A stretch of DNA of 64,000 nucleotides, from sequence record PZ452609.1. The stretch is one strand, 5' to 3'. The notes beneath the pieces are model-generated. The model made no database searches. It was given only the letters and a program-made list of their open reading frames with translations, and had not been told where the DNA came from. Made by a program: the position numbers and the translations under genes. This stretch comes from a phage. This document shows, in pieces, positions 38,792-54,057 of the stretch; within the stretch, counting starts at the first letter, position 1; each line of letters begins with the position of its first letter.

Positions 38792-39832
38792 ATGGAGAAG
38801 TACACATTAACAAAGCTTCCCGATTCAGTTACACATGTCTTTATTGACTCTGACAGTATTGCCTATAAAGGTGCTTGTGTAGTTGAGAAAGCAAAGTATA
38901 AATACGTTAATAAACTCACAGCAGAAGAGTCTGAACCATTTGATAATGCGAAAGATGCTGCAAGATGGTTAGCAGACCAGAGAATCCTTGTGGAAGAGCT
39001 TGGCCTGACATTTGAGGAAGATGAATGGGAAAGACAAACTTGGAAAGAAGCTAAGAGTGAAAAAGAAGCTATCATGGCTACTCAACAGGTGCTTCAGGAA
39101 TGGCTTAAGATTGTTGGTAAAGAAAGAACTTGGGTAGGTTATTTAACAGAGAAGGGTGTGCATAAACATAAAGACATTAAAGGTCTTGAGCACCAATATC
39201 AAGGTAATCGTAAAGATGCTGTCACACCAACACACTTAGTCGCTTGTCGTGAATACCTTTTATCCAGACCAGAGTTCAAGCTCTTAAAGGGGGGCTTCGA
39301 AGCCGATTCAATCGTAATTGCTAAAGCTGAAAAGATGGGTAAGAAGGCTGCTCTTATGAGTATTGACAAAGACCTTCGACAAGCTGAAGGAACTTATTGT
39401 ATTGATATGACTTATGAAAAATCACCACTAATCTTTATTGCTGATAATAATGTTGGTGATATCTGGGATTGTCCTATCAAATCAAAACCAAAAGCTGCAA
39501 AAACAGTTGGTGTAGGTTTTAAATTCTTGTGCTATCAGGCTGTTGCTGGAGATAATGCAGACAACTACTTCGGACTTAAAGGTGCTGGTAAAGTGGCTGT
39601 GATGAATGCTTTAGATGGTAAAGAGACCTACAAAGAGTGTCTTGATGCTATCTATGAACTCTATGCTAAAAAAGACTCTTACACCTATGTATCATGGGAT
39701 GGACAGACAGTTACAAAGACACCGTTAGAGCTAATGGAACAGCATTTCTGGATAGCTTATCAAGAAAGAAATCCAAAAGATAATTTCTCTTTTAAGAAAT
39801 ATAATTGGGAGCCGTGTATGAATGAAGATTAA
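38792..39832 (+). CDS. 5'-3' exonuclease / flap endonuclease (FEN/RNase H-like, putative)
   Basis: N-terminal VFIDSDSIAYKGA resembles the hh-D-G/S-x-x-h-A-Y-R motif of 5' nuclease domains. Confidence 0.45.
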   Translation: MEKYTLTKLPDSVTHVFIDSDSIAYKGACVVEKAKYKYVNKLTAEESEPFDNAKDAARWLADQRILVEELGLTFEEDEWERQTWKEAKSEKEAIMATQQVLQEWLKIVGKERTWVGYLTEKGVHKHKDIKGLEHQYQGNRKDAVTPTHLVACREYLLSRPEFKLLKGGFEADSIVIAKAEKMGKKAALMSIDKDLRQAEGTYCIDMTYEKSPLIFIADNNVGDIWDCPIKSKPKAAKTVGVGFKFLCYQAVAGDNADNYFGLKGAGKVAVMNALDGKETYKECLDAIYELYAKKDSYTYVSWDGQTVTKTPLELMEQHFWIAYQERNPKDNFSFKKYNWEPCMNED

Positions 39833-40319
39833 AGGATTTGGCAATTGCCCCACCTATGGTCATTGGGTGTCTTTATGTGGGGAAGTTGACCCCACTAAAC
39901 ATTTTGGTTTTGTCTATTTAGTACACTGTAAGAAAACCGGACAATATTATATCGGAAAGAAACAGCTTAATAGTGTGACTAAAAGAAAAGTTGCTGGCAA
40001 GACTCGGAAGAAGGTAGTCACTAAGGAGAGTGATTGGATGACTTATGAAACTTCTTCTGAGTATATTAAAAAAGATATTGAGAGCTTTGGAAAAGAATTT
40101 TTTGACTTTTACATTATTCAGACCTACTACACAAAAGGTGGCCTAGTCTATGGTGAAGCAAATCTTCAACATAAATTCGATGTAATGACAAAAAGGATTG
40201 ACTCTAAGCTCAGACTCTTCTACAATGCCAATATTGCAGCAATTAAGTTTATTACTAAAGAAACTTATGAAGATGCTGAAAAAAGAATCCATAAGGTAAT
40301 GAAAGCAAACTGTGCTTGA
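39822..40319 (+). CDS. GIY-YIG domain endonuclease-like protein
   Basis: FGFVYLVHCKKTGQYYIGKK matches GIY-(x10)-YIG spacing. Confidence 0.4.
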   Translation: MKIKGFGNCPTYGHWVSLCGEVDPTKHFGFVYLVHCKKTGQYYIGKKQLNSVTKRKVAGKTRKKVVTKESDWMTYETSSEYIKKDIESFGKEFFDFYIIQTYYTKGGLVYGEANLQHKFDVMTKRIDSKLRLFYNANIAAIKFITKETYEDAEKRIHKVMKANCA

Positions 40320-40325
40320 TAACTA

Positions 40326-40589
40326 TTGAGAGAGAATAAAATGTTTAATAAAAGCAAAGCTGTGAGTCATGTAGCAAAAGTTGACAGTAAGATTGAAGAA
40401 CTTGAGCGCATTCTTGCAAATGCTAGAGAGTCGATAATTAAAGAAGTTGAAGCTGTTGAATCTCAAATGCAGCACCTAATGCTTAAACGCCAAGAGCTAC
40501 GTGAACATCTGGAATATATTGAAACACGAGAGCTAAAGGTTAACAGATATTTTAAGGAGTCCAAATGTTTAACTCAAGAGAATCAGTAA
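40326..40589 (+). CDS. hypothetical coiled-coil protein
   Basis: 87 aa. Confidence 0.3.
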   Translation: MRENKMFNKSKAVSHVAKVDSKIEELERILANARESIIKEVEAVESQMQHLMLKRQELREHLEYIETRELKVNRYFKESKCLTQENQ

Positions 40590-41320
40590 AAAACTGGAAT
40601 CTTCGTTGCGGAAAAACTCAAAAACAACCATACAGTAATGAGTATTGGGAGTCTTTGAAATCTCAATCTCTGTGTATGCTTGAAGAAGCAAAAGAGCTTG
40701 TAAAAGCGATTGAAGAGAAAGACCCCATTGAGACACTGGATGCTCAGGCAGATTTGCAATATGTTCTTGACGGTTTGATTTACCTGTCACAACATGACCA
40801 TAACGGTGCTATGAAAGCTGTTTGCCATAATAATGACCTGAAATACACAGACGATTATGAAGAAGCTTTAAAACGTCTTGCAGATATTGAGAAGCGTACT
40901 GGTCAAGATTGTATTGTCAGAATGTCAGTAGTTGATGGTAAAGAGTGGTACGCAATTGTTCGTGTAGCCGATGGGAAGATTATGAAGCAATCGAATCTCC
41001 CAAAAGTACAGCTTGGTGAATACATTGTAGAACTTGAAAGCCAAGAACTTTTTGTGGTAGTATCTGAGACATGCGTTATCTGCAAAGGTATTGTAGGTAG
41101 CTTAAAGGATTTGGGTGTAGATGGTTTTGTAGAAGTTAATCCAATTACCTCTAAAGCAGATAAAGATTTCTGTAAAGAGAACGGACTATGGATTGCAGAT
41201 ATTGTCTACTATGATGGTGAGCAGTTCCATGTAACCTCATACCCGAAACTGAATTATGATGCTAATAACCTGAAGTGCTGGTTAAAAGGGGTTGGTTATA
41301 ATGGATTCACAGAACATTAA
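40565..41320 (+). CDS. MazG-like nucleotide pyrophosphohydrolase domain protein (putative)
   Basis: EEAKELVKAIEE...DAQADLQYVLDGLIYL resembles the EExxE...ExxD pattern of all-alpha NTP pyrophosphatases. Confidence 0.4.
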   Translation: MFNSRESVKNWNLRCGKTQKQPYSNEYWESLKSQSLCMLEEAKELVKAIEEKDPIETLDAQADLQYVLDGLIYLSQHDHNGAMKAVCHNNDLKYTDDYEEALKRLADIEKRTGQDCIVRMSVVDGKEWYAIVRVADGKIMKQSNLPKVQLGEYIVELESQELFVVVSETCVICKGIVGSLKDLGVDGFVEVNPITSKADKDFCKENGLWIADIVYYDGEQFHVTSYPKLNYDANNLKCWLKGVGYNGFTEH

Positions 41321-41624
41321 TAAAGAAGGTGTGGCTCAGAAGAGCCACTTCTCAAACTACAATATTTCTATGACGGTGTTTATGAATGACCCGTTACTAG
41401 AAAAATATGGTGAGACTCCAGATACACTTCTGGACAATGAACAAGTTTTAAAAGCAGTCCTGTACAAATACGGGATTGATATTGAGAAAGAATATTCTTT
41501 TGAAATCTGCCAACACAGGAATACTTTTGGTAAAGTTGTAATGGCTCCACTATTCATGGGTGTAGAAAGAACTGACTATGGTTGGTTATATCTAAAAAGA
41601 AACTTGGAGAAATACCGTGTCTAA
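41292..41624 (+). CDS. hypothetical protein
   Basis: 110 aa. Confidence 0.35.
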   Translation: MVIMDSQNINKEGVAQKSHFSNYNISMTVFMNDPLLEKYGETPDTLLDNEQVLKAVLYKYGIDIEKEYSFEICQHRNTFGKVVMAPLFMGVERTDYGWLYLKRNLEKYRV

Positions 41625-41998: not shown

Positions 41999-44233
41999 AT
42001 GATTAAGACAATTAAAAAATCAAACGGCACAGTAGTAAGCTTTGACCCAGAAAGACTGAATAAGTGGGCATCATGGGCAGACAAGCGTGGAATTATCTGG
42101 TCAGAAGTCACTATGGAAGCTATGAAACGTGTCTATGAAGGTTGCACCACAAAAGAGATGCACCAAGCCATGATTGATGTTTGTGTTGATAAACAAACTC
42201 AAGAGTACTCAGATATGGCTGGACGGCTACTTCTGGGTATTATCTACAAAGAAGCCTTTGGAGGCTTTACTAAGGTTCCTACGCTGATTACCTTCGTTAA
42301 AAATATGGAGAGAGCAGGACTTTGGGAGAAGATGGATTATTCACAGGAAGAGCTTGAATATCTGCAAGGTTACATCGTACACTCAAAAGATATCTCTTAC
42401 GGCTATGCAGTATTGAAACAGTTCAGAGACAAGTATGGTATCCGTGATATTAAAACTGGAAGACTTTTTGAGTCACCACAATTTATGTTTATGGGCATGG
42501 CTATGAAAGCCTTTGAGAAGCAACCAAAGCACCGTAGACTACAAGATGTTATCAAGCTGTACACTTACCTATCTGACCTGAAGATTAACGCTCCTACGCC
42601 TTATTTAAACGGTTTAAGAGCAACTAAATCAGGCTATGCGTCATGCTGTTTGATTAAGGCAAATGATACTGCTGAATCACTTGGTATTGCTGCAAAGGTT
42701 GCTTATGATATGACTACAAAGCAAGCTGGTATTGGTATGCTGATGGAGACTCGCACTATTGGTGATGGTATCCGTCAAAATACGATTGAGCACATGGGTA
42801 AGCTACCTTATTACAAGCTTGTACGTTCATCTGTAGAGGCAAACAAACAGAAGAGTCGTGGTGGTTCAGCTAATAACTTCTACACTGCTCTAGACCCGCA
42901 GATTGAAGATTTACTGCGTTTGAAGCACCCTACAACGGTTCCTTCTAAACGTATTAATGAGATGGACTACTCATTCGGTACAAACGATTATTTCTGGCAG
43001 TGTGTTCAGTATGATACAGATTGGTTGCTATTCTCTTACAAAGATGCACCAAAACTCTATGACATGTTCTACACAGCATCTGCTGATGAGTTTGCTATGG
43101 CAGTTGGTCATGCAGTACATTCAGGTGTTAAACACAGACGAGTCAAGGCTCGTGAAATTGCTAAGCTGTTTATTCAACAGCGTTATGCTACAGGTCGTGT
43201 GTATCCATTCTTCACTAACAATGCAAACACACATACACCATTTAAAGAACCATTGAAGATGTCAAATCTTTGTATGGAAATTGTATTGCCAGTGTATGGT
43301 TTTGAGAAAGAGACAGACCTTTACAGAGACGATGCTGTGAAAGAGGATGGTGAGGTAGCTCTTTGCTTCCTAGCTAGTTTGGTTGCAGGGAGAATTTCAG
43401 AAGATGAATACGCTGACGTTGCTTATTATGCTCTTGCAATGGTTGACTCCGTTATTGACCTTATGGATTATCCGTATCCGTCGATGCGTAACCATGTTCA
43501 GAAGCGTCGTTCTGTTGGGATTGGCCTTACAAATGTGGCTCATTACCTTGCGAAGAACTACGTGAACTATTCTTCAAGAGCAGGTAAGACGAAGCTTCAT
43601 GAGCTTGCTGAAATGCACTCTTACTACTTACACGAAGCTTCTTTGAGACTTGCTAAAGAACGTGGTGTACCTGAGTATATGAAGTTCACTAAGTATCCTG
43701 AAGGGTGGGTTCCTCCAAAGACAGCTAACAAGAAGATTGATGAAAAGCATGATGCGAAACTACGATATGATTGGGATGACTTAGCACAACGTATCAAAGA
43801 GAATGGTGGAATCCGAAACTCTGTATTAGAAGCTTACATGCCTAATGAGAGTTCTTCACTAGCAACTAATACGACAAATGGCTTGTACCCAATTCGTGAC
43901 TTTATTTTAACTAAAAAGTCTGCAACTGGTAACGTACTGTTTATTGTTCCAGATTATGAAGAGTTGAAGTATGTCTATGAAATTGCTTGGGATATTGACA
44001 CCTTTGATATGATTGATTGTTATGCAATTGTTCAAAAGTTCACTGGTCAAGCTATCTCTTCAGACTTCTATGTTGACTATGCAAAGTCTAAGAAGGTATC
44101 ATTGGCTCAAGCTCTGAAGTACATGATTTATGCCAACTCGGTAGGTATGAAAACCATGTACTACCTTAACAGTCGCATTGGTGTAGGTAAATCTGCACTG
44201 CAAGATGCTTATTGCGAGGGCTGCGGTGTTTAG
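41999..44233 (+). CDS. nrdA: ribonucleotide reductase class Ia large subunit
   Basis: 744 aa; N-terminal ATP-cone-like region; followed by nrdB and glutaredoxin-like gene. Confidence 0.85.
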   Translation: MIKTIKKSNGTVVSFDPERLNKWASWADKRGIIWSEVTMEAMKRVYEGCTTKEMHQAMIDVCVDKQTQEYSDMAGRLLLGIIYKEAFGGFTKVPTLITFVKNMERAGLWEKMDYSQEELEYLQGYIVHSKDISYGYAVLKQFRDKYGIRDIKTGRLFESPQFMFMGMAMKAFEKQPKHRRLQDVIKLYTYLSDLKINAPTPYLNGLRATKSGYASCCLIKANDTAESLGIAAKVAYDMTTKQAGIGMLMETRTIGDGIRQNTIEHMGKLPYYKLVRSSVEANKQKSRGGSANNFYTALDPQIEDLLRLKHPTTVPSKRINEMDYSFGTNDYFWQCVQYDTDWLLFSYKDAPKLYDMFYTASADEFAMAVGHAVHSGVKHRRVKAREIAKLFIQQRYATGRVYPFFTNNANTHTPFKEPLKMSNLCMEIVLPVYGFEKETDLYRDDAVKEDGEVALCFLASLVAGRISEDEYADVAYYALAMVDSVIDLMDYPYPSMRNHVQKRRSVGIGLTNVAHYLAKNYVNYSSRAGKTKLHELAEMHSYYLHEASLRLAKERGVPEYMKFTKYPEGWVPPKTANKKIDEKHDAKLRYDWDDLAQRIKENGGIRNSVLEAYMPNESSSLATNTTNGLYPIRDFILTKKSATGNVLFIVPDYEELKYVYEIAWDIDTFDMIDCYAIVQKFTGQAISSDFYVDYAKSKKVSLAQALKYMIYANSVGMKTMYYLNSRIGVGKSALQDAYCEGCGV

Positions 44234-44287: not shown

Positions 44288-44546
44288 TATGAAGGACTTA
44301 ATAGCAAATCATGAGTGGCCAATTTATCTGCTCTACAAACCTCGGAAAACGTTGTACTATGTAAGTAGCACAGATATGATGATAAAACAAAATGATGACT
44401 CATGGGTTGATGGTGTGTCATACATCTCTACAGCAGATGGTAAAATCTATGCAAGACCATATGAAATGTTCAATGAAGAAAATTGGGAAGTTCTAGACCG
44501 AAAACAAGCCTTAGAAATGATAAAGAAAGGAGAAATCACACTATGA
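44288..44546 (+). CDS. hypothetical protein between nrdA and nrdB
   Basis: RBS ggagagag before ATG 44288; stop overlaps nrdB start as ATGA. Confidence 0.35.
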
Positions 44547-45616
44547 TTAACCAACACCCAATCTTTTTAGGTGGTGAGAGAAAGACATTTGACTCACTTA
44601 ATAAGCACTACCCAAAAATCTTTGAGCTATATAAACAACAAAAAGCGCAAGACTGGTCAGAAGATGAGTTTCCTTTTGAACAATCACGTCTTGATTTTGA
44701 GAGTGTGCCAGCATCAATGTCAGGTGTAATGCTTGAGATTCTTAAGTGGCAGTGGGAAGCAGATACCCAAGTTGCTAAGAGCTTGGCATTCGCCTTTGCA
44801 CCATTCATCTCTGATGACATCTATGCAACTGCAATTATGAAGCAGTCTGAGATTGAAAACCTACATGCTCTTACTTACTCAGAGATTGTAAGGCAATGTA
44901 TTAAAAACCCTGAAACAATCTTAGATGAGATTAACCAGAATGTTGCTGTACAAGACCGATTAAAAACTGTGAATCGTGTTCTTGAAGAATTACTGGATGA
45001 AGGTATAAACTATCGCCTGAGTTATGTCCGTGATTCACTTCTTGACAAAGACCCTTTACACTTCCATAAAGTGATTCTGAAAGGGCTGTTTGCAGTGACT
45101 GCACTTGAAGGTATATCTTTTATGGCATCCTTTGCATGTACTTTTGCACTTGATGCTCAAGATAAATTTCAGGGTATTGCTCAAGCTGTCCAGAAAATTA
45201 TGCTTGACGAAATCCTTCACACTAAAATTGATATTGAAGTTTTAAAAGAAACTTTAAGAGATGATGAGTGGCAGAAAGCTTTTCAACAAATTCTTCCAGA
45301 GATTAAAGTAATCTTAGATGAAGTAGTTGAAAGTGAAGAGAAATGGTCGTATTATATCTTCTCTGAAGGACGTGCTGTAGTTGGGTTAAATACAAAACTT
45401 CTTCATGAGTGGGTTTACTATAATGCTGCCCCACTGTATGATATGTTTGGTATTCCCAGAGATTTTGTAGCTCCTAAAGAACCACCTTTGAAGTATATGA
45501 TTAAGAAGATGGAAATTGATAAAGAGCAGAATGCTAATCAGGAGCAACAGAACGGTGCGTACCTGTTGAATACTGTTGTAGATGATTTGAATAGTGGATT
45601 TTTAGAGGTTCCTTAA
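44543..45616 (+). CDS. nrdB: ribonucleotide reductase class Ia small subunit
   Basis: 357 aa from ATG 44543 with RBS aaaggag; position after nrdA. Confidence 0.8.
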   Translation: MINQHPIFLGGERKTFDSLNKHYPKIFELYKQQKAQDWSEDEFPFEQSRLDFESVPASMSGVMLEILKWQWEADTQVAKSLAFAFAPFISDDIYATAIMKQSEIENLHALTYSEIVRQCIKNPETILDEINQNVAVQDRLKTVNRVLEELLDEGINYRLSYVRDSLLDKDPLHFHKVILKGLFAVTALEGISFMASFACTFALDAQDKFQGIAQAVQKIMLDEILHTKIDIEVLKETLRDDEWQKAFQQILPEIKVILDEVVESEEKWSYYIFSEGRAVVGLNTKLLHEWVYYNAAPLYDMFGIPRDFVAPKEPPLKYMIKKMEIDKEQNANQEQQNGAYLLNTVVDDLNSGFLEVP

Positions 45617-45858
45617 TGACTTATGTGATTTACTCCAAAACTGGATGCCCTCAGTGTGAGACTGCAAAGAATTTTGCAAAAACTCGTGGTATTGACCATG
45701 TTGTGAGAATGTTAGGGCAGGATTATGAACTGTCAGACCTGATGGATATTGCACAGATGCCAGTTCGTCAGATGCCATTCATCATGAAAACTGATGGACA
45801 AAACCTAAAGCCTGTTGGGACGCTACAGAATTTTATGGCAGAGGTGAATAATGCTTAA
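45616..45858 (+). CDS. nrdH: glutaredoxin-like protein (NrdH-type)
   Basis: SKTGCPQCETAK CxxC redox motif near N-terminus; 80 aa; adjacent to nrdB. Confidence 0.6.
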   Translation: MTYVIYSKTGCPQCETAKNFAKTRGIDHVVRMLGQDYELSDLMDIAQMPVRQMPFIMKTDGQNLKPVGTLQNFMAEVNNA

Positions 45859-46105: not shown

Positions 46106-48250
46106 ATGAACAAAGTACAGATTATTAAAAAGAACGGCTCACTTGAAGAACCCGATATCAAAAAAGTTTTAGCAGCAGTAGCTAAGTCAGCTAACAGGGT
46201 TGGATATAAAGAACTTCCACCAGATGTTACCCAAGCTCTTGAGTCAGCATTTATGAGGATTTTGGTAAAGTCCACTAAGCAGAATAATTTGCTTATCTCG
46301 GTAAATGATATTCACAGTATTGTTGAAGGTGCTTTGGCAGAGGTCAATCACGAGATTTATGAGTCTTACTCAACATACAGAAATTACCGTAAAGAGGTTG
46401 CTCAAAATTGGGACGAACTCTACCAGAAGACTAAAGATACACTCTTCTTAGGTGACCGTGAAAATGCTAACTTTGACAGCAGTTTAATTTCTACGAAAGG
46501 TTCAATTATCCGTGGTTACCTGACTAAAGAAATCTTTAAACAGTATCATCTAACACCAGAGGAACTTGAAGCCATTGAGAAAGGCTTTATCTATATCCAC
46601 GATTTGAGAGACCTGATTTTTGGTGGTATTAACTGTTGCCTGTTTGACATTGGTAAAGTACTAAAAGGTGGCTTTGAAATGTCCGGCATTGAGTACTGTG
46701 AACCTAAATCTGTACTGTCAGCGTTGCAGGTTATTGGTGACGTAGTACTTTCAGCAACTGCACAGCAATTTGGTGGTTTTACTTTAGCAGAGATTGATAA
46801 GGTACTTGTACCGTATGCTAAGAAGTCTCTACGCTATCATGCTGAGAAAGCATCATCTTATGGTATTCCTAAAGAGCATTACCACAATTATGTAATGGAG
46901 CAGTTACAAATTGAACTGACTCAAGGTTTTCAGTCACTTGAGATGAAACTAAATACCGTACCTTGTAGCCGTGGTGATTTTGCATTCACAACTTTAACAT
47001 TTGGTTTACTTGACTCAGATATGTCTAATGAGGATAATCGACTACAATACATGATTGCAAGTACTCTCCTAGATGTTCGTATGAATGGACAAGGCAAGAG
47101 TAAAAAACCTGTTGTATTCCCTAAACTGGTTTATATTTATGACCAGAAGAGACATGATGAGAATATCTGTCAAGGTCACCTGTACAGTAAAGCTATTGAG
47201 TGTTGCTCTAAAGCAATGTACCCAGATTTCTTAAGTGTGTCTGGTCATGGTGCTGTAGCAGAGGCTTTTGAGCGTTCTGGTAAGGTAATTTCACCGATGG
47301 GTTGCAGAGCCTTCTTATCTCCATATTTTAATGAGGATGGGGAAGAGTTTTACGTTGGTCGTGCTAACATTGGTGCTGTATCTTTGAACTTGCCAATGAT
47401 TTACCAGTACTCTAAAGAGAATGGTTTAGATTTCTGGAAAGAGCTTGATAAGTACCTAGAGATGATTCGCAACTTCCACAAGAAACGCTACGAAATGATT
47501 GCTAATATGCCAGCAAGTTCTAACCCTCTTGCGTTCACACAAGGTGGTCTGTACAAAGGAACTAAGAAACCTACTGACAAGGTTGGTTGGGATATTGTGA
47601 AGTCCTTCACAGCTTCTTTTGGTGTTACTGCGCTTGATGAGTTGTCTGTTCTTGCTGAAGGTAAACGACTTCATGAAGTTGGAAGCTATAGTTTTGCATA
47701 TGATGTTCTGGCATACATTAACATGAAAACCGAAGAGTTTAAAAATGAAGATGGCTTCTTATATGCCGTCTATGGTACTCCAGCAGAATCACTATGTGGG
47801 ACTCAGCTAAAACAGTTCAGAGATATGTTTGGGGTTATCAAAGGTGTTTCCGATAAGGAATACTTTACAAACAGTTTCCATATGAATGTTGCAGCAGACA
47901 TCTCACCATTTGAGAAGCAGGACTTAGAAGAGCCATTCTTCCATATCTGTAGAGGCGGTAGAATCCAGTATGTAAGAGTAGCTAACCCAGAAAACTTATC
48001 AGCACTTAAGAGCTGTATTACAAGAGGGATGTTGAAAGGTTTCTATCAGGGACTTAACTTTGACTTAGCAATCTGTGAACATTGTGGTAACAGGCCAAAG
48101 GCTGATGTTGAAGAATGTGAAGTTTGTCACTCACATGATATCTCTGTGATTAACAGGGTGTGTGGGTATCTTGGATGGACTAAGATTAAAGGTGAATCCC
48201 GAATGAACGATGCAAAAATCGCTGAGATTCGTGACAGAGTTTCTATGTAA
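46106..48250 (+). CDS. nrdD: anaerobic ribonucleotide reductase (class III)
   Basis: C-terminal Zn ribbon CEHC...CEVC followed by glycyl-radical motif RVCGYLG. Confidence 0.85.
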   Translation: MNKVQIIKKNGSLEEPDIKKVLAAVAKSANRVGYKELPPDVTQALESAFMRILVKSTKQNNLLISVNDIHSIVEGALAEVNHEIYESYSTYRNYRKEVAQNWDELYQKTKDTLFLGDRENANFDSSLISTKGSIIRGYLTKEIFKQYHLTPEELEAIEKGFIYIHDLRDLIFGGINCCLFDIGKVLKGGFEMSGIEYCEPKSVLSALQVIGDVVLSATAQQFGGFTLAEIDKVLVPYAKKSLRYHAEKASSYGIPKEHYHNYVMEQLQIELTQGFQSLEMKLNTVPCSRGDFAFTTLTFGLLDSDMSNEDNRLQYMIASTLLDVRMNGQGKSKKPVVFPKLVYIYDQKRHDENICQGHLYSKAIECCSKAMYPDFLSVSGHGAVAEAFERSGKVISPMGCRAFLSPYFNEDGEEFYVGRANIGAVSLNLPMIYQYSKENGLDFWKELDKYLEMIRNFHKKRYEMIANMPASSNPLAFTQGGLYKGTKKPTDKVGWDIVKSFTASFGVTALDELSVLAEGKRLHEVGSYSFAYDVLAYINMKTEEFKNEDGFLYAVYGTPAESLCGTQLKQFRDMFGVIKGVSDKEYFTNSFHMNVAADISPFEKQDLEEPFFHICRGGRIQYVRVANPENLSALKSCITRGMLKGFYQGLNFDLAICEHCGNRPKADVEECEVCHSHDISVINRVCGYLGWTKIKGESRMNDAKIAEIRDRVSM

Positions 48251-49302: not shown

Positions 49303-49788
49303 ATGAATTACATGGAGATTCGACCATTTGACACAGCTAATGGTGAAGGGGTTCGTGTAAGCCTCTTCGTAGCTGGTTGTAAGCATCACTGTGAAGGTTG
49401 CTTTAATAAGGAATCTTGGAAGTTTAATGCTGGTAAAGAGTTCACTTATGCAAACCTTTATGGCATCATTAAGTTAATGGATGATAATGCCATCAGTGGG
49501 CTGTCAATACTTGGTGGAGAACCTCTAGATGATAGAAATATTCAAGAGGTTACCAACATATGCAAACGTATTAAAACCGTTTACCCAGAAAAATCTATCT
49601 GGCTCTGGACAGGTTTTCAGTTACATGAAAAAATTCACCTTGATGTGATGAAATATGTTGACGTGGTGATTGATGGTAAGTATGATTCATCTAAACCAAC
49701 AGTTAAACCGTATCGTGGTTCAGATAACCAAAACCTCTGGAGAAAAGAGTACGGATGGCAAGGTGATTGTCAGTGGAGAGCAGAGTAA
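49303..49788 (+). CDS. nrdG: anaerobic ribonucleotide reductase activating protein (radical SAM)
   Basis: CKHHCEGC (CxxxCxxC) radical-SAM cluster motif; 161 aa; near nrdD. Confidence 0.75.
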   Translation: MNYMEIRPFDTANGEGVRVSLFVAGCKHHCEGCFNKESWKFNAGKEFTYANLYGIIKLMDDNAISGLSILGGEPLDDRNIQEVTNICKRIKTVYPEKSIWLWTGFQLHEKIHLDVMKYVDVVIDGKYDSSKPTVKPYRGSDNQNLWRKEYGWQGDCQWRAE

Positions 49789-51337: not shown

Positions 51338-52230
51338 GAGAGAAAACTATGAAAACATCTATCCGTGTTACAGTTCATTCACCAACTAAAGGGACTCATG
51401 AAGAAGAGTTTAACATCGTCCAATTCCCTTCTGGTGAGATTGGTGGACACTTTTCGCCAGAGTTTGTTGATTTTACTGCTTATGCAGCATCATCCATCAA
51501 CAATGTGATTATGATTGTAAAAGGTTATGACAAGGACACATTGTTTGCTGTGGCACTTGCTAAAGAAGCAATTGATGATTTAATTCCTCATGATTATGCT
51601 TTAAAGACTGTCATCTTTTACTACTTACCAAATGCACGATATGACCGTCACATGTTTAAAGGTGACGCAGCAGCTTTAAAGGTTTTTGCTAAACAGATTA
51701 ATGCAATGGGATTTGGCGCAGTCTGTGCAGTTGACCCTCACAGCTATGTACCAGATAACCTGTTTAACTGCTTCCAGAGTATTCCTCAAAAGGAGATTGC
51801 AGTCCACTATGCAAATGACCCACTGGTTGATTACTTAGTAGCCCCAGATGCAGGTGCTGCTAAGAAGGTTGCAGAGACCGCTAAAGAGGTGGATAAACCA
51901 TATATCACAATGTCTAAGGTGCGTAACCTTAAGACTGGTGAAATTACTGGTATGCGAATCCTTGATGATGTTGATTTGACAGATAAAACCGTCATGATTC
52001 TGGATGATATCTGTGATGGTGGTCGAACCTTCATAGAAGCAGCTAAGCATCTCCGTGAAGCAGGTACAAAACGTGTGGAACTCTATGTAACACATGGTAT
52101 CTTCTCTAAAGATGTTGAAAACCTTCTTGACAATGGTATTGACCATATCTACACTACAAACTCTTTAGGGGAAGCTAAAGACCGTGGCTTAACACATTAT
52201 GGTCAAGTTACTGTAGCAAACCTTGATTGA
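51334..52230 (+). CDS. ribose-phosphate pyrophosphokinase-like enzyme (PRPP synthetase family; possible ADP-ribose pyrophosphokinase)
   Basis: PRTase-type binding motif VMILDDICDGGRTF; 298 aa; immediately upstream of Nampt-like gene. Confidence 0.7.
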   Translation: MREKTMKTSIRVTVHSPTKGTHEEEFNIVQFPSGEIGGHFSPEFVDFTAYAASSINNVIMIVKGYDKDTLFAVALAKEAIDDLIPHDYALKTVIFYYLPNARYDRHMFKGDAAALKVFAKQINAMGFGAVCAVDPHSYVPDNLFNCFQSIPQKEIAVHYANDPLVDYLVAPDAGAAKKVAETAKEVDKPYITMSKVRNLKTGEITGMRILDDVDLTDKTVMILDDICDGGRTFIEAAKHLREAGTKRVELYVTHGIFSKDVENLLDNGIDHIYTTNSLGEAKDRGLTHYGQVTVANLD

Positions 52231-52275: not shown

Positions 52276-54057
52276 ATGACTAAATCACTTTATGCAGTAC
52301 CAGCAGGTTTAAATGCAGATGCTTACAAATCTGGTCATGTTTACCAGTATCCTAGTGCAACAGAATACTTGATGTTCAACCTGACACCACGTAGTGATAA
52401 ATGGTTTAACAGCCCTTTAGCAATTGACGGTGTAGTGGCTTTTGGTATTCAACGTTTTGTTAAAGATTACTTGATAGACCACTGGAATGCCACTTTCTTT
52501 GAACGTGATAAAAAAGAAGCCATTGATGAAATCTTAGAAGTCATGAATGGTGTTCTGGGTAAAGATGCTATCGGTCGAGAGCATTGGGAAGCACTTCACG
52601 ACTTAGGTTATCTACCAGTTGAAGTATACGCTGTAGAAGAAGGCACAGTTGTTCCAATGCGTGTCCCGATGATTGTCTTTCAGAACACTGTTTCAGGTTT
52701 TCATTGGGTAGCAGGTTATCTGGAAGATGCTTTCTCTGCTGAAATTTGGAAGGCTTGCACCATTGCAACTATTGCATTGCATTACAAACGCATCTGTAAG
52801 AAGTGGGCTGACCTTACTTGTGACAATGACTTACATTTACCTTATCAGTGCCATGATTTTGCTATGCGTGGTATGTCCGGCTTTACTGATGACGCATTTA
52901 ACGCTGTAGGTCACTTAACCAGCTTTAAAGGGACTGATAGCTTCCCTGCTGTATACACGGCTAAACGAATCTATGGACAGTCCTACCCAATCTCTGATAT
53001 TGGTAGCTCTGTACCAGCCACTGAGCACTCTGTAATGTGTGCAAACATTGCTTGGGAAGGTGGTAATGAGTTGATTGAAGAAGAAAGACGCTTTAAAGGT
53101 GAGTTACAAACCTTCCGTCGTTTCTTAACAGAAACTTACCCAACAGGTATTGCAAGTATTGTTTCAGATACTTATAACTTCTGGAGAACTGTGTCAGAAA
53201 TCTTACCAGCACTTCGTAAAGAAATTATGGAACGTGATGGCAAACTGGTAATTCGCCCTGACTCTGGAGACCCTGTACATATTGTCACAGGTTATAAAGC
53301 AATCCACTTAGAATGTGCTAAGAAGGCTTATTACGAGCACCTAAGCAAGCTGGAAGTCAGTGACACAATGTTGAATGCTGTTCTTAACATGAAGCTTGAA
53401 AACATCAACTATGGTATTGCTGGATGGCTACTGTCAGAAGGCTACGAAATGGTTGTTGACAGAGAAGACTTTGAAGTTGCTGATACAGTGATGTTGAAGA
53501 ACGCTTATATGGTTGGTTCTGCAAACGTTGTAACACGCCCTGTAGCAGAGATTGATGGAGCTATTAAGACCTTGTATAACATCTTTGGAGGAACTATCAA
53601 CTCTAAAGGTTTTAAGGTACTGGATGAGCACATTGGACTTATCTATGGCGACTCTATCACGTTGGAACGTGCAAACGAAATCCTGAAGCGTCTGTATGAA
53701 ATGGGGTTTGCAAGCTCTAACGTGGTGTTTGGTGTAGGCTCTTACACTTACCAGTACATGACTCGTGACACCTTTGCATTTGCTGTCAAAGCAACTCTTG
53801 CAAGCATTGGTGGCAAAGAGATTATGCTTGCAAAAGACCCTAAAACAGATAGTGGTGTTAAGAAATCTGCCTTTGGTGGTGTAGCACCTATGTGGGATGG
53901 TGAGAATTTGAAAGCTGTAGATGGCTATGGATTCCAGAGCTTTGCAGATGCACTTGAACATCCAGCTTGTGCTTTACGTTTAGTCTTTAGCGACTCTGAG
54001 CAGTACGGTTACACAACTCTTGGTGATATTCGAAATAATATTGACAAGCAGCTTTAA
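52276..54057 (+). CDS. nadV: nicotinamide phosphoribosyltransferase-like enzyme (Nampt/NadV family)
   Basis: 593 aa; family assignment by overall similarity of pattern (e.g. VSDTYNFW) and by pairing with Prs-like gene. Confidence 0.6.
   Translation: MTKSLYAVPAGLNADAYKSGHVYQYPSATEYLMFNLTPRSDKWFNSPLAIDGVVAFGIQRFVKDYLIDHWNATFFERDKKEAIDEILEVMNGVLGKDAIGREHWEALHDLGYLPVEVYAVEEGTVVPMRVPMIVFQNTVSGFHWVAGYLEDAFSAEIWKACTIATIALHYKRICKKWADLTCDNDLHLPYQCHDFAMRGMSGFTDDAFNAVGHLTSFKGTDSFPAVYTAKRIYGQSYPISDIGSSVPATEHSVMCANIAWEGGNELIEEERRFKGELQTFRRFLTETYPTGIASIVSDTYNFWRTVSEILPALRKEIMERDGKLVIRPDSGDPVHIVTGYKAIHLECAKKAYYEHLSKLEVSDTMLNAVLNMKLENINYGIAGWLLSEGYEMVVDREDFEVADTVMLKNAYMVGSANVVTRPVAEIDGAIKTLYNIFGGTINSKGFKVLDEHIGLIYGDSITLERANEILKRLYEMGFASSNVVFGVGSYTYQYMTRDTFAFAVKATLASIGGKEIMLAKDPKTDSGVKKSAFGGVAPMWDGENLKAVDGYGFQSFADALEHPACALRLVFSDSEQYGYTTLGDIRNNIDKQL

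Follow-up and report, generated by a model that had tools for sequence, protein, structure and literature searches.

What kind of enzyme is encoded by the open reading frame (ORF) at positions 40565–41320 of the phage sequence PZ452609.1, and what is the C-terminal part of its product for? The ORF lies in the window analysed here, a stretch of 64,000 nucleotides of this record. An interpretation of the letters made without database searches (the sequence-only reading) had proposed a MazG-like pyrophosphohydrolase domain of ~110 residues with an acidic EExxE/ExxD pattern, fused to a C-terminal extension of ~140 residues of unknown function, which might shift its specificity, for instance to nucleotides that act as second messengers in host immunity. 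We find that the protein belongs to a familiar class of phage enzymes, the nucleoside triphosphate (NTP) pyrophosphatases of the MazG/HisE type, here in a previously unremarked fusion with a CxxC-containing domain. Both domain assignments are made with high confidence. As for its role, we favour an accessory nucleotide-pool pyrophosphatase whose second domain would act through its thiols, in regulation or in docking, and we assign a probability of about 55% to this reading. No description of this fusion was found in our literature searches.

The ORF starts with ATG and ends with a TAA stop codon at 41318–41320, exactly as delimited in the sequence-only reading. Conservation counts given below refer to 35 cluster representatives of the fusion family. 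Structures were predicted with AlphaFold2 (AF2), and their confidence is expressed as predicted local distance difference test (pLDDT) values and predicted template-modelling scores (pTM). The gene and its N-terminal part have the following features.

40565–41320, plus strand: whole ORF, NTP pyrophosphohydrolase plus glutaredoxin-like domain, 251 residues (full-length phrog_2144 match; 302 of 305 records).
40554–40559, plus strand: Shine-Dalgarno sequence AAGGAG, 5 nt upstream of the ATG, read from the sequence.
40565–41020, plus strand: complete pyrophosphatase module, residues 1–152, stand-alone in other phages (stand-alone homologues, BFVD, phrog_671).
40637–40840, plus strand: helical MazG/HisE core, residues 25–92 (Pfam PRA-PH, HisE 1yvw, AF2 helices).
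40682–40696, plus strand: E40-E41-A-K-E44, first metal-binding motif (EExxE), invariant in 35/35 and in the stand-alone homologues.
40730–40753, plus strand: E56-T-L-D59-A-Q-A-D63, second acidic motif (D63 in 35/35, D59 in 34/35).
40820–40843, plus strand: V86-C87-x-N89-N90-D91-x-K93, end of the last core helix (N89, N90 and K93 do not vary, either in the 35 representatives or in the stand-alone homologues).
40856–40999, plus strand: extra helix 98–112, β-hairpin 116–123/126–133 and basic loop with R133, K138 and K141, residues 98–145 (AF2, conservation).
41000–41038, plus strand: inter-domain linker, residues 146–158, with invariant P146 (low pLDDT; the stand-alone homologues end here).

Judged by its sequence relationships, the N-terminus is correctly described as an all-alpha NTP pyrophosphatase domain of the MazG/HisE superfamily with its metal ligands intact. 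Residues 26–78 match Pfam PRA-PH (PF01503) with 26.3 bits, above the gathering cut-off of 21.3 (E = 1e-5), and several orthologues pass Pfam MazG (PF03819; 27.5 versus a cut-off of 22). The profile of diverse family members matched HisE of B. cereus (PDB 1yvw; E = 0.0047) with the acidic motifs in register, while phrog_2144 (‘MazG-like pyrophosphatase’) matches the whole protein with E = 4e-101. E40, E41, E44, D63, N89, N90, K93, K138 and K141 are invariant in all representatives, and D59 and R133 are each retained in 34 of the 35. In an alignment that takes in the stand-alone homologues, both D59 and D63 are invariant. The Pfam, phrog_2144 and HisE profile matches, together with the invariant ligands, indicate that the acidic pattern noticed in the sequence-only reading is not due to chance, so that this part of it was borne out. 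The conserved segment 86–93 is a probable phosphate or substrate contact. A covarying catalytic cysteine was also considered and was dropped as a candidate: C87 is replaced by Ser in one fusion member and is variable in the stand-alone homologues.

The catalytic module extends further than had been proposed. Dozens of stand-alone proteins of 148–175 residues cover 92–99% of residues 1–156 in a profile search (E-values from 1e-40 to 1e-20), and in the alignment they end exactly at the ‘PKVDL’ linker. Further, phrog_671 matches residues 6–156 (E = 4e-16), phrog_37824 (‘MazG-like’) matches residues 81–151, and viral pyrophosphohydrolases of 159–174 residues align over ~156 columns in BFVD. Because the stand-alone homologues align over residues 1 to ~152 and then stop, the module comprises ~152 residues and the extension ~95 residues (~159–245). 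The fusion as such had thus been recognized correctly, but not its boundary; residues ~98–150 are present in the stand-alone homologues and match MazG-like PHROGs, and belong to the pyrophosphatase module. In the AF2 model, helices of the core are predicted, at low confidence, at residues 4–14, 25–50, 54–74 and 79–91. Helix 98–112 and β-hairpin 116–133 are predicted with pLDDT values of 85–91, and linker residues 150–158 with values below 50.

Two stand-alone relatives, P0052 and P0055 (213–217 residues), carry two insertions within the module, one of ~30 residues after the first motif helix and one of 15–25 residues around the hairpin. The helix–hairpin region thus tolerates elaboration. In BFVD, some part of the model gave a fold match over ~159 alignment columns to a protein of 471 residues from a giant virus (Mimivirus LCMiAC01), which is annotated as thymidine kinase; this is in line with a role in nucleotide metabolism.

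GenBank records label the gene product ‘phosphoribosyl-ATP pyrophosphohydrolase’, ‘MazG-like’ or hypothetical, and its RefSeq entry is FDI04_gp059, ‘MazG-like pyrophosphatase’ (Felix01p205 and SUSP1 agp058 are names of the same gene in other phages). The first of these labels, which many records carry, would make the protein a true HisE of histidine biosynthesis. By sequence, PRA-PH/HisE is indeed what the protein matches best in Pfam and the PDB, and a Prs-like enzyme is encoded by the phage. However, the match is limited to generic metal-binding helices (residues 26–78 of 251), and family members match Pfam MazG equally well. The phage annotation contains no his genes, no his-operon context and no HisI, and the Prs-like gene is the Adps gene of the NARP1 operon (see below), not a phosphoribosyl pyrophosphate synthetase serving histidine synthesis. 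We regard a function in histidine biosynthesis as extremely improbable.

The second part of the question concerns the extension, for which two features are relevant.

41039–41299, plus strand: predicted divergent glutaredoxin-like thioredoxin-fold domain, residues 159–245 (AF2, Foldseek, BFVD, hhalign, Pfam on an orthologue).
41072–41083, plus strand: C170-V-I-C173, CxxC at the N-terminus of helix α1 (TGC GTT ATC TGC; 35/35).

Structure prediction of the C-terminal domain had been suggested in the sequence-only reading as a check. Modelled alone, the domain yields a thioredoxin fold with a mean pLDDT of 84.7 and a pTM of 0.76. In the full-length model (pTM 0.43) its topology is β(161–165)-α(171–182)-β(188–191)-α(197–205)-β(212–216)-β(221–225)-α(233–242), with pLDDT values of 83–93. 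For both models, all 50 best Foldseek matches in the PDB are thioredoxin-fold proteins (best E = 6.4e-4; template-modelling (TM) scores 0.5–0.69); these include thioredoxins, DsbD-gamma, thioredoxin-like proteins, calsequestrin and protein disulphide isomerase domains and the DUF836 protein 1ttz. In BFVD, viral glutaredoxins and thioredoxins match the domain with target TM scores (TMt) of up to 0.81.

Direct searches with the C-terminal domain sequence gave no significant match in Pfam, NCBIfam or the PDB (the last by phmmer/hmmsearch), so that the fold was established via structure prediction and via an orthologue that passes Pfam. This orthologue, P0022 of the Erwinia-phage type, matches Pfam Glutaredoxin (PF00462) with 23.5 bits at a cut-off of 22.9; the orthologues P0034 (19.2 bits) and P0040 (13.5 bits) stay below it, and other family members match Glrx-like/DUF836 (PF05768) and Thioredoxin_2 weakly. 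Among the sub-threshold PDB matches are the thioredoxin-like entries 6il7/5h29 (E ~ 1.3) and 2fgx (E = 1), with the CxxC in register. When the domain was compared by hhalign with a glutaredoxin (Grx)/NrdH alignment, consisting of the phage’s own Grx and four further sequences, E was 1.2e-4 and the CxxC was in register with the CPYC of Grx; the global alignment is collinear over the whole 80-residue phage Grx.

Both cysteines of the CxxC are present in all 35 representatives, whereas the inner residue pair occurs in 14 variants. CVIC, CIIC and CAIC are common, usually there is no proline inside, and one cluster, the Erwinia-type orthologues, has CTQC. No other cysteine is invariant; at C203, 4 of the 35 have Ala instead. 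Mean pairwise identity is 0.49 for the C-terminal domain and 0.54 for the catalytic module. This nearly equal conservation indicates that the C-terminal domain is under purifying selection. The extension, which had been left without an assignment, is according to the models a degenerate glutaredoxin-like thioredoxin-fold CxxC domain and not a canonical redoxin.

A protein of 224 residues from a 4.3-kb metagenomic contig (P0042) has a C-terminal extension of ~70 residues which aligns to the thioredoxin-like region but is devoid of cysteines (YILVRNKEVVIPEEL). If this extension is a form of the added domain that lacks cysteines, as is conceivable, a role of the domain in structure or docking would be favoured.

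How widespread is this combination? An exhaustive search of 1.84 billion representative proteins with a hidden Markov model (HMM) found the C-terminal domain in six clusters only, in proteins of 244–251 residues and always C-terminal; stand-alone or differently fused copies were not found in this set. Four additional HMM matches (P0024–P0027) were judged spurious, as they are long repeat proteins. The protein is carried by 303–305 phage records (303 by tblastn at E ≤ 1e-3 in a phage collection), nearly all of them full length, with at least 80% of the protein covered in 302 of the 305 matching records. The window itself belongs to a Felixounavirus: region 40000–42000 matches Escherichia (O157) typing phage 1 (NC_041979/KP869100) with 100% identity, and ~200 Felix O1-like phages with 96–97%. 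The genomes with the fusion that we examined are 81–98 kb in size and of the Ounavirinae type (Felixounavirus, SUSP-like, Moogle-like, and Erwinia and Pectobacterium relatives). As the domain is limited to Ounavirinae-type phages while the pyrophosphatase module is found more widely, the fusion appears to be a clade-specific invention on a more widespread phage module.

The gene order is fixed in all members examined: primase/helicase, exonuclease, SegE-type GIY-YIG endonuclease, a small coiled-coil ORF (missing in L013), the fusion, two ORFs of ~105 residues, and NrdA or NrdD. In the window, the fusion ORF shares 25 nt with the upstream and 20 nt with the downstream ORF and, overlapping both neighbours, is part of a tightly packed operon. 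Genes of ribonucleotide reductase (RNR) follow.

41999–44233, plus strand: nrdA (context).
44543–45616, plus strand: nrdB (context).
45616–45858, plus strand: stand-alone glutaredoxin, 80 residues, CPQC, directly after nrdB (context).
46106–48250, plus strand: nrdD (context).
49303–49788, plus strand: nrdG (context).

Thus the phage encodes NrdAB, Grx and NrdDG, and in addition ThyA (thyA) and dihydrofolate reductase (dfrA). No dUTPase, dCMP deaminase or gp56-type dCTPase is present in the phage annotation, and none is listed in the Felix O1 genome paper. A tblastn search of the genome with an E. coli Dut sequence did not find a trimeric dUTPase (best E = 0.62). Stand-alone modules in other phages have similar surroundings. 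At two loci, L006 (7165–9372) and L008 (8001–11053), they are separated by no more than a few genes from an NT5C-family 5'-nucleotidase, ThyX, NrdA/NrdB and Grx or thioredoxin (Trx). In unrelated metagenomic phage contigs, the module together with NT5C, ThyX, Nrd and Grx genes looks like a recurring deoxynucleotide-metabolism cassette. In a Rosetta-stone test, no split-off redoxin gene was found directly beside the stand-alone modules; since the RNR clusters concerned do contain ordinary Grx/Trx genes, this result is suggestive and not specific. With moderate confidence, the genomic associations point to deoxynucleotide metabolism, by supply of deoxynucleoside monophosphates (dNMPs) or by cleaning of the pool.

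Fitness data are available for the SUSP1 orthologue agp058, which is 81% identical to the window protein. In a CRISPRi-ART knock-down it was classed as ‘Not Fit’ (fitness 0.62, Kolmogorov–Smirnov (KS) p = 0.42), while SUSP1 nrdA (agp061) and the exonuclease were ‘Fit’ (PMC11879866). This indicates that the gene is accessory on the laboratory host. In a co-evolution of Felixounavirus P10 with its hosts, the MazG-like gene was mutated both with and without oxidative stress.

We propose the following mechanism for an accessory pool pyrophosphatase. On the four-helix core of the first module, E40, E41, E44, D59 and D63 would bind Mg2+, and K93, R133, K138 and K141 from the helix and the hairpin would presumably contact the triphosphate. 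By analogy with the superfamily, the module would act as a dimer or tetramer and cleave (deoxy)nucleoside triphosphates ((d)NTPs) to the monophosphates and pyrophosphate. The enzyme may clear the pool of dUTP, dCTP or non-canonical dNTPs, and the resulting dNMPs, such as dUMP, may become available to the phage ThyA. Beyond the flexible linker, the CxxC domain may serve as a redox switch or may dock to a thiol-dependent partner such as RNR. Our confidence in any function of the CxxC domain is low. A more specific version, a redox-coupled pyrophosphatase, would use the domain either as a thiol switch for pool sanitation under oxidative stress or as a tether to the C-terminal thiols of RNR, in a minimal phage dNTP-synthesis complex; we consider it rather unlikely. 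If true, such a switch or tether would have no precedent in the MazG/HisE superfamily and would be peculiar to Ounavirinae.

Several observations weigh against the proposed role. The C-terminus of the window protein itself reaches no Pfam redoxin threshold. The cis-proline before β3 is absent, the residue being Ala, Gly or Ser in all 35 representatives; a proline anywhere in the loop before β3 occurs in one of them (at position 210), and the Grx proline lies opposite a gap in the global hhalign alignment. The family alignment contains no counterpart of the glutathione-binding motifs of Grx (GG/TVP), nor a WSGFRP-like motif as in NrdH. Classical oxidoreductase activity is not assured, as the cis-proline and the glutathione-binding motifs are missing. 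A canonical Grx is already encoded next to nrdB, and two lineages that have the fusion with its CxxC possess NrdD only and no NrdAB, which weakens an RNR-specific role. The idea of dUTP or dCTP as substrate comes from context only, since there is neither similarity to gp56 nor a match to the Pfam dimeric-dUTPase family. The N-terminal core of the pyrophosphatase is modelled at low confidence (pLDDT 49–69), which would fit an obligate oligomer. Finally, the operon is not purely metabolic, because the gene immediately downstream encodes an inhibitor of the host RNA polymerase (see below).

The missing motifs are also what one would expect of a domain that is no oxidoreductase at all. Zinc or an Fe–S cluster might be bound between two protomers by their CxxC pairs, or by CxxC and C203 jointly, or the domain might be a structural or oligomerization module. 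A glutaredoxin CxxC without inner proline favours Fe–S binding, and in this family the proline is usually missing; oligomers of the MazG type would presumably bring two CxxC pairs close together, and the extension of P0042 aligns to the domain without having cysteines. On the other hand, the invariant cysteines number only two, C203 not being one of them, and the CxxC is located exactly at the canonical redox-active position. We judge a metal-binding or purely structural domain to be unlikely.

Conversely, the domain might be a dedicated hydrogen donor of the NrdH/glutaredoxin type for the phage NrdAB, fused for co-localization. In most members only two small ORFs separate the gene from nrdA downstream of it, fold and CxxC of the domain are Grx-like, and the CTQC of the Erwinia type resembles the CVQC of NrdH. 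NrdH proteins have C-[VM]-Q-C and WSGFRP-type motifs and are encoded with the class Ib genes nrdEF. In Facklamia ignava, a Grx fused to NrdB is reported to serve as RNR reductant (PMC6187632). This explanation has to contend with the separate Grx directly after nrdB and with the lineages that keep fusion and CxxC with NrdD only, which together argue against a simple RNR reductant, and also with the lack of the cis-proline and of the WSGFRP-type motif. We hold it to be improbable.

The downstream neighbour leads to an explanation outside nucleotide-pool metabolism.

41301–41624, plus strand: EP1, host RNA polymerase inhibitor, 107 residues, phrog_4007, annotated hypothetical (PDB 9W3D chain G).

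The product is ~90% identical to PDB 9W3D chain G (E = 6e-59), and its gene adjoins the pyrophosphatase gene in all Ounavirinae checked. An EP1-like gene also follows the homologue in L002, L003 and L009, the last a contig with a stand-alone module. The pyrophosphatase might thus be an alarmone hydrolase which degrades (p)ppGpp, reprogrammes host transcription together with EP1 and blocks abortive infection that depends on the stringent response. The overlap of the two genes and their pairing in L009 are in line with this. One binding site of ppGpp (site 1) is situated at the β'/ω interface of RNA polymerase. EP1 binds the N-terminal helix of β' and the C-terminus of ω of the E. coli enzyme (dissociation constant 34 nM) and displaces region 4 of σ70 (10.64898/2025.12.17.695035). 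Moreover, hydrolysis of ppGpp by a phage MazG-like enzyme has a precedent in Atd1 (10.1101/2022.06.09.495361). Yet the adjacency to EP1 may simply have been inherited with the gene order. Other stand-alone homologues are without EP1 beside them and have ThyX, NT5C and RNR genes as neighbours. A cyanophage MazG is reported not to hydrolyse magic-spot nucleotides (PMC6850273). An alarmone hydrolase would also leave the CxxC domain without a role. We consider this function distinctly unlikely.

EP1 itself has a relative: PDB 9W3E chain G, a 124-residue ‘Phage protein’, is homologous to it over residues 45–96 (phmmer, E = 5e-5). According to the abstract of the EP1 preprint, its three proteins bind distinct sites on RNA polymerase (10.64898/2025.12.17.695035), and chain G of 9W3E is presumably the Pseudomonas-phage inhibitor PP1 of the same preprint. 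A common core of these proteins may have gone unnoticed before.

Does the fused domain redirect the enzyme to immune nucleotide signals, such as cyclic oligonucleotides, molecules of the cyclic ADP-ribose type or dITP, as the sequence-only reading had suggested for nucleotide second messengers? Atd1, a phage MazG-like protein, protects against TIR-STING toxicity (10.1101/2022.06.09.495361). The P10 orthologue acquired its mutations in co-evolution with hosts, the gene is dispensable on the laboratory host, as is usual for counter-defence genes, and an anti-defence operon, NARP1, is present in the same genome. Against these points stands that we found no match to PADLOC or to any known anti-defence family. 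Pectobacterium phage PcCB7V, which encodes Atd1, does not occur among the 303 phage records found by tblastn, an indirect test that involved no comparison with the sequence of Atd1. The nucleotide on which Atd1 acted was ppGpp and not cGG (10.1101/2022.06.09.495361). The gene is located in the conserved replication/RNR core block and not in a variable anti-defence island. The thioredoxin fold with its CxxC points to thiol chemistry and not to binding of a nucleotide signal. The suggestion is thus unsupported, and we rate an anti-defence enzyme as very unlikely.

The NARP1 operon is hidden behind its annotation. ORFs 51349–52230 and 52276–54057 (both plus strand), named ‘ribose-phosphate pyrophosphokinase’ and ‘nicotinamide phosphoribosyl transferase’, are its Adps and Namat genes. 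NARP1 has been characterized in the closely related Felixounavirus Bas63, where it rebuilds NAD+ from ADP-ribose and nicotinamide. As the pair corresponds to NARP1, its RefSeq names are misleading.

Another annotation concerns the upstream side of the fusion. ORF 39822–40319 (plus strand) is labelled ‘NAD synthetase’ via phrog_447 and yet matches Pfam SegE_GIY-YIG (PF19835) with E = 9e-28; by this match it resembles homing endonucleases of the GIY-YIG type. Erwinia phage Coenus (L003) has a gene at the corresponding position that is also labelled ‘NAD synthetase’. The GIY-YIG gene keeps its place directly upstream of the fusion in the four members with Pfam or PHROG annotation of the neighbours (SUSP1 and L011–L013), a constancy that is unusual for a mobile endonuclease.

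Recognition of the redoxin-type domain has consequences for annotation. The gene is carried by about 300 sequenced Felix O1-like phages, among which there are therapeutic and typing phages with E. coli, Salmonella, Shigella, Citrobacter and Erwinia as hosts. All records label it ‘MazG-like’, ‘HisE’ or hypothetical, and in none is the redoxin-type third of the protein noted. This domain argues against copying the (p)ppGpp or anti-defence reading from other MazG-like proteins. If it is true that the thiol domain regulates or localizes the pyrophosphatase, there would be a new link in phages between quality control of the nucleotide pool and redox state or dNTP synthesis. The impact is likely to be modest, because both domains are well known and the gene is dispensable in laboratory conditions.

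Comparison with known systems places the protein as follows. With the MazG/HisE superfamily (e.g. 1yvw) it shares the helical core with EExxE and ExxD/D motifs; it differs in that the phage module is ~50 residues longer, having the extra helix and the hairpin with K138/K141, and in the redoxin-like fusion. Unlike E. coli MazG, which has a tandem pair, it contains a single MazG domain, and while HisE proper is a small single-domain protein or a fusion to HisI, the phage protein has 251 residues and two extra elements. Closest are the stand-alone phage pyrophosphohydrolases (phrog_671, phrog_37824, the metagenomic proteins P0041–P0070, BFVD A0A516L8P2 and A0A218MM90), which have the same core, helix and hairpin. 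They keep N12, Q34, E40, E41, E44, D59, D63, N89, N90, K93, K138 and K141 of the fusion, and occur in a similar context (RNR, ThyX, NT5C, exonuclease), but lack the C-terminal thioredoxin-like domain.

This domain has the β-α-β-α-β-β-α fold, the length of ~85 residues and the CxxC at the start of helix α1 in common with Grx, NrdH and DUF836 proteins (1ttz, 2fgx, phage Grx). In contrast to Grx and NrdH, it has no cis-proline and no GG/TVP or WSGFRP motif, and in the HMM search it was never found by itself. Compared with NrdH, its motif is CVIC, with CTQC in one cluster only, and the adjacent RNRs are of class Ia and class III.

Among phage enzymes, Atd1 of phage PcCB7V is another member of the MazG superfamily, which shows that counter-defence is possible for such proteins (10.1101/2022.06.09.495361). 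T4 has a (d)NTP pyrophosphatase in its dCTPase/dUTPase gp56, which provides dNMPs beside RNR and the enzymes of thymidylate synthesis, and the role proposed here would be analogous. Homology to gp56 was rejected (hhalign probability 0.3%, no phrog_173 match), and gp56 (phrog_173) is ‘Fit’ in T4 whereas the SUSP1 orthologue of the fusion gene is ‘Not Fit’. A precedent for the fusion of a Grx domain to an enzyme of deoxynucleotide synthesis is NrdB of Facklamia ignava, which is reported to carry a canonical Grx at its N-terminus, so that RNR itself is the fusion partner (PMC6187632); in the phage protein, the partner is a pyrophosphatase and the Grx-like domain is degenerate.

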